A DNA stretch of 64,000 bases. Origin: Minisyncoccota bacterium (GTDB lineage: Bacteria; Patescibacteriota; Minisyncoccia; Phycocordibacterales; UBA9973). The stretch lies in assembly GCA_041667145.1 (NCBI GenBank), contig JBAYFP010000003.1, positions 8,424 to 72,423 of the forward strand, given 5' to 3'. This document shows positions 1,733 to 61,914 of the stretch, one piece after another (position 1 is the stretch's first letter; each line of letters starts with the position of its first letter). The position numbers and the translations under genes are program-made. The notes beneath the pieces were generated by a model. It had not been told where the DNA came from, ran no database searches, and worked only from the letters and a program-made list of their open reading frames with translations.

Positions 1733-1802
1733 TGTGGAGAACCCTACAGACGTTGGACGTCTGGGACTTATCCACACTCCCAGACGTCCAACGTCTGGGA
1801 GA
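1733..1802. repeat. REP1 composite unit: outer stem tgtggaga/tccaca enclosing the palindrome cagacgttggacgtctg, followed by its inverted copy cagacgtccaacgtctg.
   Basis: Read directly from the sequence. About 94% identical to the unit at 2613..2682 in the same orientation. GC-rich in an AT-rich context. Confidence 0.85.
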
Positions 1803-1829
1803 AAAATTACTTGCAATTTTTTTATAATG

Positions 1830-2486
1830 TTAGACATCAATAGAAAAATCTTCTTTTAGAAAAATAGGAAATTGTTCTCTTTGTTCTCTAACTAAAGAAG
1901 CTACTTTTAAACATTCCTCTTTAAAATTTAAATTATCACCATAAAATTCAAGGAGGATAGCTGCTTCTTTTTTAGAAACTATCTTAAAATTCATTCTCTC
2001 ATATTCTTTATCACTAGATACAATCAGACAACTTTTCTCAGGTGGTATATCATGAATCATGTAATTGACATTTACATAAGGAAAAACCTTTAAAAAATAC
2101 TGTTCGTCACTTATCAAATTAGATTTAAATCTACCTTGGAATAGTGCCCCACTGCGATGATGTACTTCATTGAAGTATTTTGTATACCCACCCAACAATC
2201 TTTTTAGAAATTCAGAAATACCTCCATCTATCTCTTGTTTTAGAACAAAATGAAAATGATTTGGGTTAAAACAATAGCAAACAATAGAAACTAAAACGTT
2301 TTGCTCTCCCATACATACGATACCCGATTTATCCCTAATACTCCCTATTGGTTTAATTGTATTAAACTTCTTTACACTTAAAACAAAACGATCTATATCT
2401 TTTTTGGTTGTAAAAATGTCTCTTTTATCAACACCCCTATTAAAAATATGATAATACTGATCAGTTACGAGAGGATTTTTTCTCAT
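1830..2486 (-). CDS. IS200-like Y1 HuH transposase of the REP-associated (RAYT, COG1943-type) kind.
   Basis: 218 aa. Motifs YYHIFNRGVDKRDIF, the HuH motif NPNHFHFVL, and GYTKYFNEVHHRSGALFQGRFKS. These match the YHV-NRG...NHVHLL...Y--Y-N--H-R-GHLWQGRFKS pattern of PF01797/COG1943 proteins. Flanked on both sides by REP1 palindromes. Confidence 0.8.
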   Translation of the reverse strand: MRKNPLVTDQYYHIFNRGVDKRDIFTTKKDIDRFVLSVKKFNTIKPIGSIRDKSGIVCMGEQNVLVSIVCYCFNPNHFHFVLKQEIDGGISEFLKRLLGGYTKYFNEVHHRSGALFQGRFKSNLISDEQYFLKVFPYVNVNYMIHDIPPEKSCLIVSSDKEYERMNFKIVSKKEAAILLEFYGDNLNFKEECLKVASLVREQREQFPIFLKEDFSIDV

Positions 2487-2495
2487 AATAAATTA

Positions 2496-2527
2496 AGATT
2501 TCCAGACGTTGGACGTCTGGAAATCTT
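2496..2527. repeat. REP1 single extended palindrome agatttccagacgttggacgtctggaaatct, 10 nt upstream of the RAYT start.
   Basis: 31 nt near-perfect palindrome sharing the cagacgttggacgtctg core. Confidence 0.8.
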
Positions 2528-2612
2528 TTTAAAATATTTTAAATTAAATTATAAATGTAATTTAATTATTATCTCACAACACAAAAATTTTACCCTTCCT
2601 TCTGTGGATAAA

Positions 2613-2682
2613 CCTACAGACGTTGGACGTCTGGGACTTATCCACAACCCCAGACGTCCAACGTCTGGGAAAGAATAAAACA
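2613..2682. repeat. REP1 composite unit, second copy (direct repeat of 1733..1802).
   Basis: tgtggataaacctacagacgttggacgtctgggacttatccacaaccccagacgtccaacgtctggga. About 66 of 70 nt identical to copy 1. Confidence 0.85.
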
Positions 2683-2683
2683 A

Positions 2684-2718
2684 ACCAGCCCCAGACGTTT
2701 TACGTCTGGGGCTGGTTA
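2684..2718 (-). terminator. REP1-related 15 bp hairpin followed by a U-run on the minus strand. Likely the terminator of the surface-protein gene 2758..5046.
   Basis: aaccagccccagacg tttta cgtctggggctggtt. On the minus strand it is followed by tgttttattcttt. Confidence 0.6.
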
Positions 2719-2757: not shown

Positions 2758-5046
2758 CTATTGAGCTTGAGAATTCATCATCTGTTTCGTCATAGGACCA
2801 ACAAGACCATCGGATACTAAACCATTAGCAGCTTGCCATTGTTTGATAACTGCGATCGTCTTTGGACCTAATTTGCCATCGAGAACCAAACCAAGATTTA
2901 GTTTAGCATTTAAGAATTTTTGTAATTCTATGACAGCAGCACCTTGACTTCCATTTTTCAAAACAGCCGTTCCAAAATTGTAAGTCGTAGGAGGTGTGAC
3001 GGTCGTCACATGATTCCCAACACAAGAAGCTCCCGTTGATGTACTGAAGCCAGTTGCTCTATTCCCACATCCTGGAATTTGAAGTGTCTCATTATTAACA
3101 CATGCTGCTCCAGTGGATGTATTAAACAAATTCCCTGCTGAACATCCTGGAGTTACAGCTGGTGGAACTACTGGAGTTGTATCTGGAGTTGTATCTGGAG
3201 TTGTATCTGGAGTTGTATCTGGAGTTGTAGTAACTGTAATAGGTTCATCTGAATCACTTGTAGTTTTACCAAGAGCAATGGTTATCATACCATCAGCTGC
3301 AGTAGTAAAGTATGTATTATTTGTATGTGTCGCAACTGGACTTGTAGAACCTGTTGAACCCCATGTACCTTTCTTTTGATAGGCTGTACCAAAATAAAGT
3401 TTATTCGCAGTATAAGTATTTGCAGTTGCTAAACTTAAAGTTCCTGCTGTTATGGTAAGGGTTCGACCTATAGCAAGACTAGTTGCTGTAGCAGCTTTTA
3501 TACCACTACCAGAAAGTCCTAGGTTACTATAAGTATTAGGAGTTCCAGCAAGAGCTGCATTTATTGTTTGCCCTGTCCCTCTGTAATTAACAGTGTTTCC
3601 TGCTGTTGAAACATTTAAGTTGGTAATTGCAGAAAGACCATCAATATTTAAAATACCAGTAGCACCGTTAACAAATCCAGTCCCTGCTCCAGATAAAGCT
3701 GTCGTAGCTGTAACCGTACCACTATTGTTTAATGTTCCAGCAATAGTAAGTAATGTTAATACTGTCAATGTACCAGAGTTAGAACATACTCCAGAAACAC
3801 TTACACTTGGAATGGCTAATGTTCCAGAGAGAGCACATGTCGCAGAAGAAAATGTGTGAACACCAGTAGTATTTGGAGTAGCAGTGAATGTACCAGTATT
3901 TGCTAAATTCCCTGCGAAAGTAATAGCAACAGCCACTGCTCCTTCAGTCCATGTACCAACATTTGATACATTTCCTGTAAAAGTTTTAAGACCTGTTGCG
4001 CTTAAAAAGTTTATTGTCGCTCCACTAGCAATTGTAGTGGTTCCTGTGACAGTTAAGACAGAATCAGCCGTAGCAAGAGTACCAGCAGCTACACTAAGGC
4101 CTCCAGCACCGATGTTTACAGTACTACCTGTTAAAGTTGTATTACTATTTAAAGTAACAAGACCTGTAAAAGTTTTAGTACCACTAGTGAATGATAATGT
4201 TCCTGTAGTAGCTACTGTAGTAGTACCAGTAACATTAAATGTATAAGTCGATGTGTCAAGGGTTCCAGTAGTTACAAGAAGATTTCCACCGATAGTAACA
4301 GTGCTACCAGTTGGAGTAACTGTATTTCCCGTACCAGCAATAGTAACATTGTTGTATGTAGTATAAGCACCCATTGCTTGTGCACCAGTTCCATTAAAAG
4401 TAATAGTACTACCAGTACCAGTAAATGTCCCACCAGCTGTAAAATCACCACCAACAGCAACAAGACTATTTGTAGCATTAAATACTGATGCTGCCCCAAG
4501 AGTCAAATTTGTACCAACATTGATATGACTAATACCCGTAGAAACTAATGAACTTTGAGCATTTGCAGCAAGAGTAATAGCAGCAGAAGTTGTTATCGTT
4601 CCAGTACTTATTGTAACTTGAGAAATTCTTGTTGCTGCCCCTCCTGTAATAGCTAAGTTTTGAGCCAATAATGTAGCATTACCAACAGCAAGAGTAGTTG
4701 TAGCAGAATCTCCTGTCGGAGTAGCAACGGTTACAGTTCCCGTGGCTGTAAGTGTAGTACTTGCTCCAGACATAGTAAGAGCTGTTGTTGAAACTCCATC
4801 GTTTATTGTAAGATTTACAATTGATGTTGCCACTGGAGTTGATGACAAAGTAACAAGGTGTCCTGAAGCAATAACTACAGAATCTCCAGTTTGAGGAGGA
4901 TTACCCCCTACCCAAGTAAGACCTGCATTCCAATCACCACCAGAAGCTGAAGTGACTGTTGCTGCTTCTGCTTTACCTGTAAACAAAGCTAAAGCAAAAA
5001 CAAACATTCCGACTGAAAGAAAAACATTTTTTAAATTAAACTTCAT
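2758..5046 (-). CDS. Large secreted Thr/Gly-rich (beta-helix-like) surface protein with a PDTT linker, Cys-motif repeats and a C-terminal PG_binding_1 peptidoglycan-binding domain.
   Basis: 762 aa. Signal peptide MKFNLKNVFLSVGMFVFALALFTGKAEA. Long T/G/S-rich repetitive region. Linker (PDTT)x4. Cys motifs P-G-C...TG..C repeated. The C-terminal segment GAAVIELQKFLN...DGKLGPKTIAVIKQWQAANGLVSDGLVGPMT matches the PG_binding_1 consensus. Confidence 0.7.
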   Translation of the reverse strand: MKFNLKNVFLSVGMFVFALALFTGKAEAATVTSASGGDWNAGLTWVGGNPPQTGDSVVIASGHLVTLSSTPVATSIVNLTINDGVSTTALTMSGASTTLTATGTVTVATPTGDSATTTLAVGNATLLAQNLAITGGAATRISQVTISTGTITTSAAITLAANAQSSLVSTGISHINVGTNLTLGAASVFNATNSLVAVGGDFTAGGTFTGTGSTITFNGTGAQAMGAYTTYNNVTIAGTGNTVTPTGSTVTIGGNLLVTTGTLDTSTYTFNVTGTTTVATTGTLSFTSGTKTFTGLVTLNSNTTLTGSTVNIGAGGLSVAAGTLATADSVLTVTGTTTIASGATINFLSATGLKTFTGNVSNVGTWTEGAVAVAITFAGNLANTGTFTATPNTTGVHTFSSATCALSGTLAIPSVSVSGVCSNSGTLTVLTLLTIAGTLNNSGTVTATTALSGAGTGFVNGATGILNIDGLSAITNLNVSTAGNTVNYRGTGQTINAALAGTPNTYSNLGLSGSGIKAATATSLAIGRTLTITAGTLSLATANTYTANKLYFGTAYQKKGTWGSTGSTSPVATHTNNTYFTTAADGMITIALGKTTSDSDEPITVTTTPDTTPDTTPDTTPDTTPVVPPAVTPGCSAGNLFNTSTGAACVNNETLQIPGCGNRATGFSTSTGASCVGNHVTTVTPPTTYNFGTAVLKNGSQGAAVIELQKFLNAKLNLGLVLDGKLGPKTIAVIKQWQAANGLVSDGLVGPMTKQMMNSQAQ
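3171..3230. repeat. 12 nt tandem repeat (ctggagttgtat) x5 encoding the (PDTT)n linker of the surface protein.
   Basis: Perfect tandem copies read directly from the sequence. Confidence 0.9.
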
Positions 5047-5224
5047 AATTTTTTTCCGTAAAAACGGATAATTAATAATAATTAATAATAATAATTTTTA
5101 AAGACAATAAACGTATCACCATCAAGACGACCTTCAATGGTAATTTATACATCTATTATAGAACTAAAACAATAAATATGATAACAAGTAAACTGTGGAT
5201 ATCTTTTTATATAAATAACCAAAC

Positions 5225-5254
5225 AAAAAACCACCCCCGTCGGGGTGGTTTTTT
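5225..5254 (-). terminator. Bidirectional intrinsic terminator hairpin ccaccccc-gtc-gggggtgg flanked by A and T runs. Terminates gene 5315..7516.
   Basis: aaaaaaccacccccgtcggggtggtttttt immediately downstream of the minus-strand gene end at 5315. Confidence 0.7.
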
Positions 5255-5314
5255 GAATACTTTTTAAGGCGTATTAACCATAACTAATCTTAAATCTTAG
5301 ATTCTAAACTCTAA

Positions 5315-7516: not shown

Positions 7517-8100
7517 AATTTTTTACTACGCCATTAATTAGTTTCGACAAAACTAAAAGCGTATTTTTCTATCATTATTTTTTTATTCACCTATAACTTT
7601 TAAAAATTAATAATGCGGTAAATAAATTTAATAATGAACAGATTTAAACTAAACGAAAACAAAACTATTTCAACAAATTTATTTCGTTAAAATATTCACT
7701 AAATCAGAAATATATTTCTCATTTAGTTATTTAGTTTTCAATGACCTTTCTTTTACCCATACAAATTTTTGACCTTTGATGGGCTTGCTCTCCTTCAAGA
7801 TTTTTTCGACGAAATCGTGAATGAAAACAAATAACATTTGCGAACACAGAACACACTTTACAGTGAGCAATCTGTGTACACCCAAACATTATAATATATA
7901 GCTCTAGGCTAGAGCAATAGACTATGTGGATAACCCCGAACAAAAGCCAAAGGCTTCGTACGAAGCAGGTTCCTTTTTGAGAGAAAACCTGTATAATCCA
8001 TACATCTATATTCTCATAATTTTAATCAAAAAGCAACCTAAATAGACCCTATAATTAAAGTAGACGTTTGACACTAGATAAAAGTACAAAAAATATCCAT

Positions 8101-9283: not shown

Positions 9284-9357
9284 TTGATAAAGTATTATGT
9301 TTTTGGAGCTGGTCTGGGGCTCTGCCTCGAGGACCCGAGAAAAATATAAACTTTATC
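9284..9357. repeat. E-family element copy 1: GC-rich core gagctggtctggggctctgcctcgaggacccgag between locus-specific AT-rich inverted arms.
   Basis: The core differs by 1 nt in 35 from the copy at 42139..42173. The arms tgataaagtattatgtttttg / agaaaaatataaactttatca are imperfect inverted repeats. Confidence 0.7.
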
Positions 9358-25312: not shown

Positions 25313-28300
25313 TTACTTTTCAATCTTTACTTTAAACAGCAAAGTGTCAATTTTAATCTCCTCCCCATTATTTTCCTCAAATTTTATCTTTGAAGCTAGG
25401 ATTATTTTCAACAAATCTTCTTCAAATTTTTGAATTAATTTTTTACCCTCGTCATTGGTCTCAACAGTGAGAGAAATAACATCACTAGGAGTGAGCCCCA
25501 TCTTCTTGCGCATGTCTTGTATTGCTCGCACAAATTCTCGATAATCTCCTTCTTGTTTTAACTCTCCTGTGATATTCATATCAAGCAATACTTCAACTTC
25601 AAGATTCTTATTTTCTTTTACTTCTTTCACATTAAGCTCATCCTTAATTAATTCAATATATTCACCACCTAAATTACAATCCTTCACTTCAAGTGAAGCT
25701 AAAGGCTGGCGAACTTTTAATCCTGCCTTTTGTCGAGCCTCGAGGCCTAAAGTCACGATCTTTCTGACAGTTTCCATATGTTCCAGTACCCCCTCCTTCT
25801 TCCTCCCCCTATATAGGGGGAGGCTAGGTAGGGGTATAAATCCAAATATCTTTGAAACCTTTACCTCTGGCCACTCTGTTAAATGCACACTTTCTTCATC
25901 TTCTTCGCTCCTTAATTTCAACCAAATATCTTCCGCAGTAAATGGTACAAACGGCGCCATTATTTTTGTAAGAGTTTTTAATACAAAATACAAAGTTATC
26001 TTTGCTTTTTCAGCATCACCAATCTCCAAATCTATAGCTCCTTTTATTCTTTCCCTTGAACGACGTAAGTACCAAGTAGAGAGGTCACCAATAAAATCAC
26101 GAATAGCCCTAGTTGGTTCAAGTAATTTATAGTCATCAAGGTGTTTAGTAACAAGATCTATCAACTCATCCAATTTAGCTAAAATCCATTGATCTAAAAT
26201 ATCATCTGATTTTCTAGGTCCTAAAATTTCTAAATGAGGATCTCTATATAACTCATAAAATGCTAAAACATTATACAATAATCCAAAAACCTGACGATGA
26301 AGTTCGAGTACTGTTTTTTCATCAAAATTCTTTGATTCACCCGGCTGATTTACAGAATACATCCAAAGACGCAATGTATCTGCCCCATATTTATCCATTG
26401 CTTCCCATGGGTCAACAATATTACCAAGAGACTTCGACATCTTCTTACCTTTTGCATCAAGTAAATGTCCTAAACAAATAACATTCTTAAAAGCTTTACC
26501 ACGACCCATCAATACACCAATAGCATGTAAAGTATAAAACCATCCACGAGTCTGATCTATGGCTTCAGAAATAAAATCAGCAGGATATCCAGGACCATCA
26601 ACCCATTCTTTATTTTCAAAAGGATAATGATCTTGTGAAAAAGGCATAGTTCCAGAATCTAGCCAAACATCCATAACTTCTTTTGTGCGTATTAAATTTC
26701 CACCACATTTACAAACAAGTTCTACTTCATCGATAAAAGGCCTATGTAAATCAAGTTCATAATTTTCATTATGAGGAAGCGGGACAAAATCAAAATTTTT
26801 AATTTGTGCGTTAGCCAAATCACTATCTTTATCGCATAATGTTTCTTCTTTATTTAAACCTTTCACCATTGAAAATAGCGCCCAAGCAGTATCTTCATGT
26901 GTCACAATCAAAATATTTTTATTTTCATATTTTTGATCCACTTCATAAATAAATTTACCTACCCTTTTTTTTACATCAAGTAAAGCCTCTCCTTTTGGAC
27001 AAGCTCCGTCATATCTTTCTAATTTGTGCTCTATAAAATAATCATCAATGTCTTTCATCGAACTAGAAGCAAAAATACCATCATTTATTTCCACTAATCG
27101 TGAATCATTTTTTATATCTTTTACTTGGAAATTTATTCCTTCAGCAACAATCTTCGCTGTTTCTTGTGTACGTAAAAAAGGTGAAGCAAAAATCAAATCA
27201 ATTTTCTTATCTATTAAAAGTTTGACAGCTTCTTTAACCTGTTTATTACCTTTTTCAGTAAGATGATGAGTATTATTTGGGTTACTTGAAACTACATTAA
27301 GAGCATTATTTTCGGCCTCTCCGTGCCTCATCACGAAATATTTATTGCCAGATTTTTTTGTCTTTTCTTTTATTTCTTCTACACCCCCAATCACATCAAT
27401 CTTTTTACATGAATCACAAATCCAAACTGGAAGCGGGGTCCCCCAATAACGTTCACGAGATATAGCCCAATCTTTTATATCTTTAAGCCATTCACCAAAA
27501 CGCCCATCACGTATATGTGAAGGTTCCCAATTTATATCTTTATTTTCCTCAATCATTTTGTTCTTAATTTTCGGATCAGACATTCTGATATACCAAGAAT
27601 CACGGGCATAATAAATAAGTGCAGTATGGCAACGCCAACAGTGAGGATAAGAGTGCTCATATTTTTCTTTTTTTAACAAAAGATTTTTATGGGCAAGATC
27701 TTTTATAATATCAACAGCGACTTCTTCATCTCTAACAAATCTATCTTCTAAAAATTCAGTTCCCTTTAAAAATTTACCATCAAGACCAACAAGGTGATGT
27801 TTTGGTAGCCCAATTTCATTGCCTAATACAAAGTCATCCTGACCATACATCACTGCGGTGTGCACTACACCTGTTCCATCTTCAGTTGTCACAAAATCTG
27901 CGTTGTAAACTTTATAAGCCTTTTCTAATTTTGGTTTTTCACTTTCAGAAATTGTATTTTGCAAAAATGGATAAAGTGATTCATATTGTAAACCAATTAA
28001 ATCTTTACCTTTTATTTCATCATGAATAATCTCAATATTCTGACCTTCAAAAACATTTTTTATTCTATCTTTTGCAAGAATGTAAAGTCCAGAAACACCA
28101 ACGACTCTTAATGCCACATAAGAAATATCTTTCCCCACGGCTAAAGCGACATTCCCTGGAAGTGTCCACGGTGTTGTGGTCCAAGCCAAGATATAAGCAC
28201 TCTCTTTTATTATCATACCCTTCCCAAAAGATTGACCGGGCTTGAGGTGAAATTTTACTGTTACTGACAAATCTTTTACATTTTCATACCCTTGGGCTAA

Positions 28301-39322: not shown

Positions 39323-39832
39323 TTATTTTCCGTTTTTAAGTCTTATTTCATTACCATCTGCAAAATTTGTAGCTATTTCATCTGCGCGTTCATTCCATTT
39401 ATTACCATTGTGTCCTTCTACATAAATCCATTTAATCTTAAATAATTTAGTAAGTTCATAAAGTTCTTCCCATAGTTCTTTGTTTAAAACAGGTTTTTTG
39501 GCAGCATTTCTCCAGTTATTTTTCTGCCAATTAAAAATCCATTCTGTAATTCCCAAAATAACGTATTTTGAATCAGAAAAAACCTCAAATACCCCCTCCT
39601 TACTCCTCCCCCTACCGTAGGGGGAGGCTGGGTGGGGGTAAATACCACTATTTTTCATATACTTGAGAGCCTCTATAGGTGCAGTGAGTTCCATTTGATT
39701 ATTTGTAGCATGTTTAGAAGCCCCACCAATTTCAAAAACTTTTTTACCGTCAATTATGATGGCTCCCCATCCGGCTGGCCCTGGGTTCCCCCTCGCCGCC
39801 CCATCTGTATAAATTATTATTTTTGATTTCAT
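39323..39832 (-). CDS. rnhA: Ribonuclease HI with an in-frame insertion.
   Basis: 169 aa. IYTDGAARGNPGPAGWGA, NQMELTA and EGHNGNKWNERADE. Extra segment GIYPHPASPYGRGRSKEG encoded by a P-family palindrome. Confidence 0.85.
   Translation of the reverse strand: MKSKIIIYTDGAARGNPGPAGWGAIIIDGKKVFEIGGASKHATNNQMELTAPIEALKYMKNSGIYPHPASPYGRGRSKEGVFEVFSDSKYVILGITEWIFNWQKNNWRNAAKKPVLNKELWEELYELTKLFKIKWIYVEGHNGNKWNERADEIATNFADGNEIRLKNGK
39592..39645. repeat. P-family nested palindrome inserted in-frame in rnhA (ccccctccttactcctccccctaccgtagggggaggctgggtgggggtaaatacc).
   Basis: About 85% identical to the ileS copy. Same orientation and same reading frame relative to the host gene. Confidence 0.8.
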
Positions 39833-42115: not shown

Positions 42116-42196
42116 AAAGTTAAGCAAATTAAAGTTTTCGAGCTGGTCTGGGGCTCTGCCTTGAGGACCCGAGAAAACTTTAATTTGCTTAACTTT
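42116..42196. repeat. E-family element copy 2: a perfect 23 bp AT-rich inverted repeat (aaagttaagcaaattaaagtttt / aaaactttaatttgcttaacttt) enclosing the core cgagctggtctggggctctgccttgaggacccgag.
   Basis: The core is 34 of 35 nt identical to 9305..9338. The arms are unrelated to the arms at the other loci. The element ends 3 nt before the hit start codon. Confidence 0.75.
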
Positions 42197-54782: not shown

Positions 54783-54849
54783 ATCATTTATTATACAACA
54801 TTAAAATATATAAAGGAAAGAAATAGAAGATGTGGATAAGTAAAAAGTA

Positions 54850-61126: not shown

Positions 61127-61210
61127 TAGCGAAATTATTTTATAATACCTTAATACTACCCCCCCCCGACATATTTTGTCAAATATTTGTATTAATCCAG
61201 CCCACTACTT

Positions 61211-61914
61211 AAACACTTGGACATCGGATGTCCAAGTGTTTAATTTTCTAATTCTTTTAACATTTCTTTTCTTAATTCCATATCTTCCAACGATGAAGAG
61301 ACAAAGTCCTCGTACTCTTTTTTATTTCTAAACTGTTCTAGCACAATATTTGTATTACAAAATTTATTATTTAACGTTTCATCTAAAAATTCATTCAAAC
61401 TTGATTTACTCAACTTAGACATCGGATGTCCAAGTTTGTTATTTCCATTAATATAAGCGCTAAGGTGAAGCAAATATTCATTTGAATCAATATGTTTTGA
61501 TTTAAATTTACCTTGGAAAAGAACACCGCTACGTTTATGCCTATTATTAAAATATTTTGTATACCCATTCCCCAACCTCTGCATAAATTTCTCAACCCCT
61601 TTCTCTTGAAGAGGAGTAATTAAAAAATGAAAGTGATTAGGGTTCATACAATAAGCAATAAATTGTACAAGCGGTTTCTTTTTTTTATTAGCTTCGCCAA
61701 ACTTTTTCTTAAAAGAAAATTCATAAACACTACCGATTGGCTCTGTTTGATTAAAATCAAATATACTTTCACAAAAACGAAATAAATCCTTTTCATCAAC
61801 AAAAATATTCCTCTTATCTGTTCCACGATTATAAATATGATAATACTCATTAATTGCAAAAGAATGTTTTCTCATACTCAAACTATATCACTTGGACATC
61901 GGATGTCCAAGTGG
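61211..61914 (-). mobile_element. REP-RAYT-REP unit B, inserted between tig and clpP. Its cognate palindrome family REP2 (ttggacatcggatgtccaa) is distinct from REP1.
   Basis: Palindromes at 61211..61241 (overlapping the stop codon), 61412..61436 (inside the coding sequence) and 61889..61914 (8 nt upstream of the start and 37 nt upstream of clpP). Confidence 0.7.
61240..61881 (-). CDS. IS200-like Y1 HuH transposase of the RAYT type, paralog of 1830..2486.
   Basis: 213 aa. [15 protein letters not shown], the HuH motif NPNHFHFLI, and [23 protein letters not shown]. About 40% identical to RAYT A across the conserved blocks. Confidence 0.8.

Follow-up and report, generated by a model that had tools for sequence, protein, structure and literature searches.

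We analysed a 64,000-nucleotide stretch of contig JBAYFP010000003.1 (hereafter the window; 34.5% G+C) from a Minisyncoccota bacterium, and in particular a gene near its start, which encodes a Y1 HuH protein and, together with the palindromes around it, is called unit A. Unit A is probably a 'REPtron': a domesticated, chromosomally fixed gene for a Y1 HuH single-stranded DNA (ssDNA) nuclease of the type of the REP-associated tyrosine transposases (RAYTs), lying between its cognate repetitive extragenic palindromic (REP) hairpins. Domesticated transposase and repeat systems are of a known kind, and what has not yet been described is their occurrence in the candidate phyla radiation (CPR), here in Paceibacterota. 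REP/RAYT systems and REP doublets forming hairpins (REPINs) are reported mainly from Proteobacteria, less often from Cyanobacteria and Bacteroidetes, and are linked to larger genomes (PMC6006769). In the full-text literature that was searched, nothing beyond an annotation label connects REP/RAYT with Patescibacteria, Parcubacteria or CPR.

The initial annotation had described a 218-aa Y1 protein with the HuH motif NHFHF and a GALFQGRFKS block, bracketed by two composite palindromes. The protein was found with both motifs, in an open reading frame (ORF) on the minus strand, and the features of the unit are as follows.

1733-1805, no strand: composite repeat copy 1, 28 nt downstream of the Y1 stop codon
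1830-2486, minus: Y1 HuH nuclease gene of unit A, a 218-aa ORF with NPNHFHF and GALFQGRFKS
2495-2527, terminator-like on minus: single hairpin in the 5' leader, 33 nt, 15-bp stem, 3-nt loop, 8 nt before the ATG
2548-2577, minus: sigma-70-like promoter match for the Y1 gene, GTGAGA-18-TATAAT, 10/12, the best upstream; a consensus match only
2603-2675, no strand: composite repeat copy 2, on the other side of the Y1 gene
2683-2717, terminator-like on both strands: hairpin variant with a 16-bp stem and loop TTT

Both composite units announced earlier are present, as direct repeats, although the second lies about 10 nt away from the 2613-2682 first given and the two are 92% identical over 73 nt, not 94%. 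Each is built on the same plan, in which the hairpin CAGACGT-TGG-ACGTCTG is followed by a spacer and then by the same hairpin inverted. Copy 1 begins with TGTGGAGAA (1733-1741), a reversed DnaA box with one mismatch, and continues with a hairpin at 1747-1763 (loop TGG), the perfect DnaA-box nonamer TTATCCACA at 1768-1776, and the inverted hairpin at 1781-1797, whose extended stem covers 1777-1801. The corresponding elements of copy 2 are TGTGGATAA (2603-2611), a hairpin at 2617-2633, TTATCCACA at 2638-2646 and the inverted hairpin at 2651-2667. When the window was scanned for the core hairpin CAGACGTTGGACGTCTG with up to 3 mismatches, 6 sites were found (12 matches over both strands) against 0.05 expected, all of them confined to 1747-2708. 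A second, paralogous unit, called unit B, lies near the end of the window.

Folded as ssDNA, each composite forms one hairpin of 19-20 bp with a loop of 11-13 nt (z -7.3 and -12.5). For copy 1 this is a 20-bp hairpin of -25.5 kcal/mol (z -7.3), and its 11-nt loop contains the DnaA box. A REPIN consists of two inverted REPs which are separated by a short spacer and fold into a single long hairpin, and this is the form of both 73-nt units. REPINs are also repeated as units, and these REPIN-like doublets presumably replicate in that way.

The single hairpins differ slightly from what had been proposed. A palindrome does precede the start codon, but it measures 33 nt and ends 8 nt from the ATG, where 31 nt and 10 nt had been given; a transcript from the predicted promoter at 2548-2577 would carry it. 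The hairpin at 2683-2717, separated by 41 nt from the stop codon of the 762-aa gene upstream of it (2758-5046, minus), is likely to be the intrinsic terminator of that gene. The earlier idea of a hairpin variant doubling as a terminator is in line with its terminator-like character on both strands, the stem being one base pair longer than the 15 bp then stated.

The Y1 protein and its described relatives

The unit A protein scores 23.5 bits with Pfam Y1_Tnp, just over the cut-off of 23. REP_Tyr_transpos (NF047646, an equivalog) is its only NCBIfam match at E<=1, and no IS200/IS605 model of NCBIfam matched it at that threshold. In a family alignment of 23 members, N76-H77-F78-H79, G100-Y101, Y104-F105-N106, L115-F116-Q117-G118, F120-K121-S122, Y130, Y137 and N141 are all invariant (23/23). 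The set of RAYT motifs (HuH, Q-x-R and Y-x3-N) is present as H77/H79, F116-Q117-x-R119 and Y137-x3-N141, with the Pro that follows the Asn replaced by Tyr or His. C-terminal to the Tyr motif, the protein has an SS motif and ends in a helical tail.

The topology of an AlphaFold model of the protein (pLDDT 73, pTM 0.71) is that of TnpA, with the HuH motif on strand 77-84, the GGYTKYFN segment in helix 89-108 ahead of strand beta-4, and a strand at 120-125 followed by helix 128-139, which bears Y130 and Y137. The top PDB match in a fold search was 4ER8_A, E. coli RayT bound to REP (E 6e-4, TM 0.44/0.56); the TnpA proteins of IS608 and ISDra2 rank below it, the margin of RayT over IS608 TnpA being modest. 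Neither the family profile nor the N-terminal 150 aa returned anything relevant in sequence searches of solved structures; the matches came only from the fold search and from an hhalign comparison with RayT. The hhalign alignment of the family profile to E. coli RayT has a consistent motif register, in which H77/H79 correspond to H59/H61, F116-Q117 to W94-Q95, R119 to R97, Y137 (in PYVNVNY) to Y115, and N141 to N119.

The predicted catalytic Tyr of the unit A protein is Y137 in YVNVN, with N141, because Y137 aligns with Y115 of E. coli RayT, reported as the catalytic Tyr of that enzyme (Messing et al. 2012). It had been placed in GYTKYFN before, but this segment belongs to the helix preceding beta-4. 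The assignment of the unit A protein to Y1 HuH enzymes of the RAYT (class 2) type, and not to ordinary IS200 TnpA, is supported; the former label 'IS200-like' is misleading.

The natural comparators are E. coli RayT (TnpA-REP, YafM; 4ER8) with its REPs and bacterial interspersed mosaic elements (REP/BIME) and the Pseudomonas REPIN-RAYT systems, which correspond to groups 2 and 3 of Bertels and to subclasses 2.2 and 2.5 of Quentin. Unit A shares with them a single-domain Y1 HuH enzyme with the order HuH ... [WF]Q-x-RF ... Y-x3-N, own hairpins on both sides of the gene, inverted doublets that form one long hairpin, low copy number, vertical inheritance, and divergent paralogues each with its own repeat. 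Unlike RayT, which is 13% identical to it in the structural alignment, the unit A protein falls under the NCBIfam RAYT cut-off, has FQ for WQ and N-[YH] for NP, and carries an additional helical tail of 70 aa. The host also differs, being a small CPR genome, and the repeats reach tens of copies rather than hundreds. The RayT numbering used here agrees with the residues named in PMC6006769.

By its motifs (NHFH; FQ; Y[VI][NH]xN[YH]; LxLSS tail), the CPR family is closest to subclass 2.1 among the subclasses in Table 1 of PMC6006769. That subclass (2.1/2.1.2 TnpA-Y1) equals group 1 of Bertels, 'TIRYT', and is exemplified by WP_131739603.1 from a Legionella adelaidensis plasmid; its described motifs are NH[YF]H, FQ and Y[IV]HLNP plus a conserved Ser in the tail, and it is reported either without REPs or with terminal inverted repeats (PMC6006769). 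Among plasmid records, this Legionella protein of 288 aa was the best tblastn match (28% identity, E 2e-12); it has NHYH, VFQGRYK, YIVLNP, WSS and a weak C-terminal match to Bac_DnaA_C and a helix-turn-helix (HTH). Common to the CPR family and subclass 2.1 are NH[YF]H, GxYTxxFNxxHxRxGxxFQGR[FY]K, Y[IV]xLN and the SS tail motif. Two differences stand out: the CPR proteins end about 70 aa earlier, whereas subclass 2.1 has a C-terminal HTH (Bac_DnaA_C, HTH_23 or HTH_28), and the CPR family has clear hairpin REPs, unlike subclass 2.1 as reported. No HTH was found in the unit A protein by Pfam at E<=1. The idea that its tail resembles DnaA domain IV was dropped, since there is no such Pfam match and the tail aligns with the linker before the Legionella HTH.

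Subclass 2.4 TnpA-REP (group 4 of Bertels), from Cyanobacteria and Bacteroidetes, shares with the CPR family the NH[IFV]H motif and REP copies that lie in frame inside their own transposase gene. Such in-frame insertion has been called 'unique' to subclass 2.4, with some cases in 2.8, and in 2.4 the in-frame REPs generally lie between the HuH and Tyr motifs (PMC6006769). Unlike the CPR family, subclass 2.4 has insertions between these two motifs, and its W motif is WQ. In the CPR family, the hairpin-coded peptide stands before the HuH, in the alpha-A/beta-2 loop, and is absent from the gene in the window. As for the class 1 enzymes, IS200/IS605 TnpA (IS608, ISDra2) resembles the unit A protein in its HuH/Y1 fold and in relying on DNA hairpins for recognition. 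Its other features, namely Y-x3-Q, a length of about 130-150 aa, multicopy near-identical mobile units and horizontal transfer, are absent here; the unit A protein has Y-x3-N and 218 aa, and no near-identical copies of it were found.

Locus, hairpins and DnaA boxes in related genomes

The exact unit A protein is also encoded on an ENA contig, L001 (related loci and contigs are numbered with L). A word-indexed protein search returned 3,235 homologues; among the 120 listed, every named one belongs to Paceibacterota or another Patescibacteria group, and the annotations include 'transposase', 'RayT' and 'hypothetical protein'. An exhaustive search gave 12,652 clusters (50% identity) at E<=0.001, of which 89 at E<=1e-30. 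The homologue clusters are mostly about 215-230 aa in length, and most are found on one or few contigs.

The gene order ftsK-g278-...-Y1-g193-g1223-rplJ is kept in four genomes, those of the window, L002, L004 and L006. Across the L002/L004/L006 locus, the Y1 protein is 65-66% identical and its neighbours 43-87%. A fixed locus with housekeeping-like divergence fits vertical inheritance and not a hopping insertion sequence (IS), and the unit A gene is vertically inherited at the locus ftsK...rplJ, a conclusion which gene order and divergence support.

The orthologues of unit A are hairpin-flanked as well. The same 17-mer is found in L002, JARLIG01 and CAZKWN01, whereas the orthologues in L004 and L006 have a different stem, GTCGGGTGT-TGG-ACACCCGAC, around the common GTTGGAC centre. 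A scan of species-representative genomes, which do not include the source genome, returned 101 stretches with the 17-mer. Copy counts for these relatives were taken from the retrieved blocks and are lower bounds. In JARLIG01 (MAG_BO118), 10 contigs together carry at least 48 copies. CAWHSF01, the Nomurabacteria metagenome-assembled genome (MAG) that holds L002, has at least 26, spread over 41-286 kb of a 430-kb contig on which the Y1 gene lies at about 99 kb. Inverted doublets number 17 in JARLIG01 and 8 in CAWHSF01, nearly all spaced by 25 nt. This spacing is genome-specific, being 22-23 nt or 30 nt in other genomes and 34 nt in the window. Long ORFs contain 18-48% of the hairpin copies, against 74-87% of random positions, so that the copies are depleted in them. 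Related Paceibacterota genomes contain the unit A hairpin as a dispersed repeat that occurs mostly in REPIN-like doublets. The clear cognate REP clusters that had been announced for a CPR-like genome are thus seen in relatives; this spread is shown for the relatives only. A metagenome scan with a 20-mer specific to the composite of the source gave 0 matches.

TTATCCACA is the DnaA-box consensus, and TGTGGATAA is its reverse complement. Exact boxes number 5 in the window, where 0.85 would be expected, and unit A accounts for 3 of them. The sequence TGTGGATAA(A/C)CCT(C/A) forms a conserved flank on one side of many doublets in the window, JARLIG01 and CAWHSF01, and in the window doublets the spacer also holds TTATCCACA. 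An exact box lies beside 11 of the 31 REP sites of JARLIG01 and beside 7 of the 18 of CAWHSF01; none was found beside REP sites in CAZKWN01 or CAIYVW01. Outside unit A, a solo box at 7925-7933 (TGTGGATAACCCC) lies downstream of g278, a position kept in L002 (3567), L004 (3707) and L006 (3441), and a further nonamer, perfect or near-perfect, is listed at 54831-54839.

Hairpins also contribute to the proteins themselves. Of the 120 closest homologues, 72 have the hairpin-encoded peptide x[DG]V[GQK][RHP][LP] in the loop that precedes the HuH, and 10 have a hairpin-coded peptide at the C-terminus. The Y1 genes of L004 (10179-10213) and L006 (10173-10207) contain their lineage's own hairpin in frame, with a 16-bp stem. 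No hairpin-coded peptide was found in the unit A gene of the window.

Explanations and significance

If unit A is a REPtron, its protein would bind the folded hairpin on ssDNA, probably on the lagging-strand template, cut beside it through a 5'-phosphotyrosyl link at Y137, and then rejoin the strand. Such cutting and rejoining may occasionally copy or move doublets in trans, the gene itself presumably being no longer mobile. Expression is probably kept low by the leader hairpin, which ends 8 nt from the ATG, and the copy at 2683-2717 would act as the terminator of the upstream gene. Both catalysis and mobility are predictions here.

Several results weigh against the REPtron reading. With the NCBIfam RAYT equivalog NF047646, the unit A protein reaches 25.3 bits, far under the cut-off of 80, and the hhalign comparison with RayT scores weakly (E 0.038, probability 1.3%). 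No GTAG (GT[AG]G) tag was found at the foot of the hairpins, whose flanks read CCTC/CCTA and pair as an extended stem; a tag of the GTAG or CGTC kind was considered and dropped, the CCTC flank belonging to that stem. The residues of RayT reported to read GTAG, E100, H101 and R104 (PMC6006769), are not conserved in the unit A protein. The closest described subclass, 2.1, is reported to lack REPs. As to mobility, no insertion polymorphism was seen among L006, L007 and L008, which are 99.9% identical without indels, and an all-against-all megablast of 230 loci revealed only a tandem-repeat indel and no presence/absence polymorphism. Finally, the 67.5 kb covered of the source genome (the 64-kb window and the 3.5 kb of L001) contain no hairpin copy away from units A and B. 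For the family, the REP/RAYT interpretation first put forward is correct in the main; in the source genome, dispersal of the repeats is no more than a possibility.

The absence of dispersed copies could mean that the system is decaying in the source genome, with only the Y1 genes and their adjoining hairpins left and no live repeat population. JARLIG01 has about one site per 20 kb, a density at which we estimate that about 3 sites would be expected in 64 kb. At the density of CAWHSF01, however, zero extra sites in 64 kb would be unremarkable (estimated P ~0.2-0.3). Both Y1 genes are moreover intact with all catalytic residues present, and the two 73-nt doublets are still 92% identical, and we consider decay improbable. 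An autonomous minimal IS of the IS200/IS605 type, with the hairpins as subterminal ends and the whole unit of about 0.7-1 kb mobile, would account for a gene of IS200-like size with hairpins on both sides, for the length of unit B (about 707 bp) and for a fold that also matches IS608 and ISDra2 TnpA, if less well than RayT. It is difficult to reconcile with a neighbourhood common to four genomes at about 65% protein identity, with two copies in the window that are merely 48% identical, with homologue clusters mostly on one or few contigs, with hairpins far from any Y1 gene, and with a protein that has Y-x3-N rather than Y-x3-Q, is 218 and not about 150 aa long and matches no IS200 model. This alternative is largely refuted, and we regard it as very improbable.

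A more serious alternative, although still an unlikely one, is that the hairpins are chiefly structural or regulatory elements of the host (terminators, mRNA stabilisers or carriers of DnaA boxes) and that the Y1 protein has a host function, for example the processing of hairpin DNA, with little or no transposition. This is consistent with the copies that form terminator-like structures and a leader hairpin, with the perfect DnaA boxes in the units (3 of the window's 5) and at REP sites of JARLIG01 and CAWHSF01 (11/31 and 7/18), with the hairpin in the coding sequence of 72/120 closest homologues, and with a Y1 gene that evolves like its housekeeping neighbours. The fixed, genome-specific spacing of the doublets and their many near-identical copies nevertheless point to copying as units and not to independent origin, and the link to DnaA boxes is missing in CAZKWN01 and CAIYVW01. 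The host-element view also overlaps with the domestication of a RAYT, and it is compatible with catalysed spread.

A further reading can be formulated, which we hold to be rather unlikely: Y1 nucleases of the subclass 2.1 lineage would form with their hairpins a system that is inherited vertically throughout CPR and has been recruited to serve the host instead of spreading selfishly. It can be advanced because the hairpin forms part of the enzyme's own gene in about 60% of close homologues, because doublets in several genomes carry a perfect TTATCCACA, which is exposed in the loop of the folded window doublet, and because the non-CPR relatives carry a DnaA-domain-IV-like HTH that has been lost in the CPR proteins. 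Taken together, the three features would suggest that the system is connected with the binding or titration of DnaA, with single-strand processing coupled to replication, or with its own regulation.

Were the REPtron reading of unit A true, even episymbiont genomes of 0.5-1 Mb would maintain a partnership between a domesticated transposase and a repeat, and a large branch of subclass 2.1-like Y1 proteins, reported to be REP-less, would turn out to have a clear partner in the hairpins. Tests of hairpin recognition would also find compact material in the system, because the stems vary by lineage around a common GTTGGAC centre. In practice, the repeats matter for assembly breaks and gene calling in CPR MAGs, because ORFs contain hairpin-coded peptides.

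Unit B and other repeats of the window

The paralogous unit B lies between tig and clpP. It spans 61207-61913 (about 707 bp) as a hairpin-gene-hairpin unit, has a 25-nt palindrome unlike the hairpin of unit A, and encodes a protein that is 48% identical to the unit A protein over the catalytic core. Its features are the following.

61209-61243, no strand: palindrome with core CACTTGGACATCGGATGTCCAAGTG, overlapping the stop codon of gene B
61240-61875, minus: paralogous Y1 gene (gene B), 211 aa, between tig and clpP; Y1_Tnp 36 bits
61412-61436, inside the gene B coding sequence: degenerate palindrome encoding KLGHPMSKL
61889-61913, no strand: palindrome 13 nt upstream of the ATG

Internal copies of the unit B palindrome also occur in L129, L158, L207 and L228, and L207 keeps the tig-B-clpP order with a gene B that is 82% identical. 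The 19-nt core of unit B was found in more than 120 metagenome stretches. In 17 of the 120 stretches listed, a Y1 gene is present, and in 15 of these 17 the palindrome lies either inside it or no more than about 270 nt away; the other 103 are without a Y1 gene, 51 of them being at least 6 kb long. Strict co-evolution of hairpin and protein was considered and dropped, since the B-type core also flanks proteins that are only 33-38% identical to gene B, which indicates that the cores are more conserved than the proteins.

It had been suggested that unit A may explain the origin of the other palindromic families of the window. This holds for the unit B palindrome insofar as it accompanies a paralogue, and not for two further families, near 25.8/39.6 kb and 9.3/42.1 kb, which are unrelated. 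A 48-nt G/C-rich imperfect palindrome, TACCCC..CCTCCCCCTA..TAGGGGGAGG..GGGGTA, occurs at 25789-25836 and 39593-39640 (71% identical); its sequence is unrelated to the hairpins of units A and B, and no cognate gene was identified for it. The G/C-rich core GAGCTGGTCTGGGGCTCTGCCTYGAGGACCCGAG occurs at 9294-9349 and 42128-42183 (88% identical), its copies being nested in AT-rich inverted repeats (9267-9293/9350-9376 and 42088-42139/42173-42224). This core has no Rfam match; it may represent a further repeat family or a small structured RNA. Neither tRNA genes nor Rfam families at gathering score were found in the whole 64-kb window.

The 762-aa gene next to unit A, which encodes a PG_binding_1 protein, contains a 12-nt tandem repeat at 3147-3230 that encodes TPDT repeats. 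A 24-nt indel in this repeat separates the window from ENA contig L001, the two being otherwise 99.8% identical. A terminator-like hairpin, CAAAAAACCACCCC-loop-GGGGTGGTTTTTTG, lies at 5224-5255 of the window; it is unrelated to the REP hairpins and recurs in L002 (7775-7807), L004 (8283-8312) and L006 (7292-7327).

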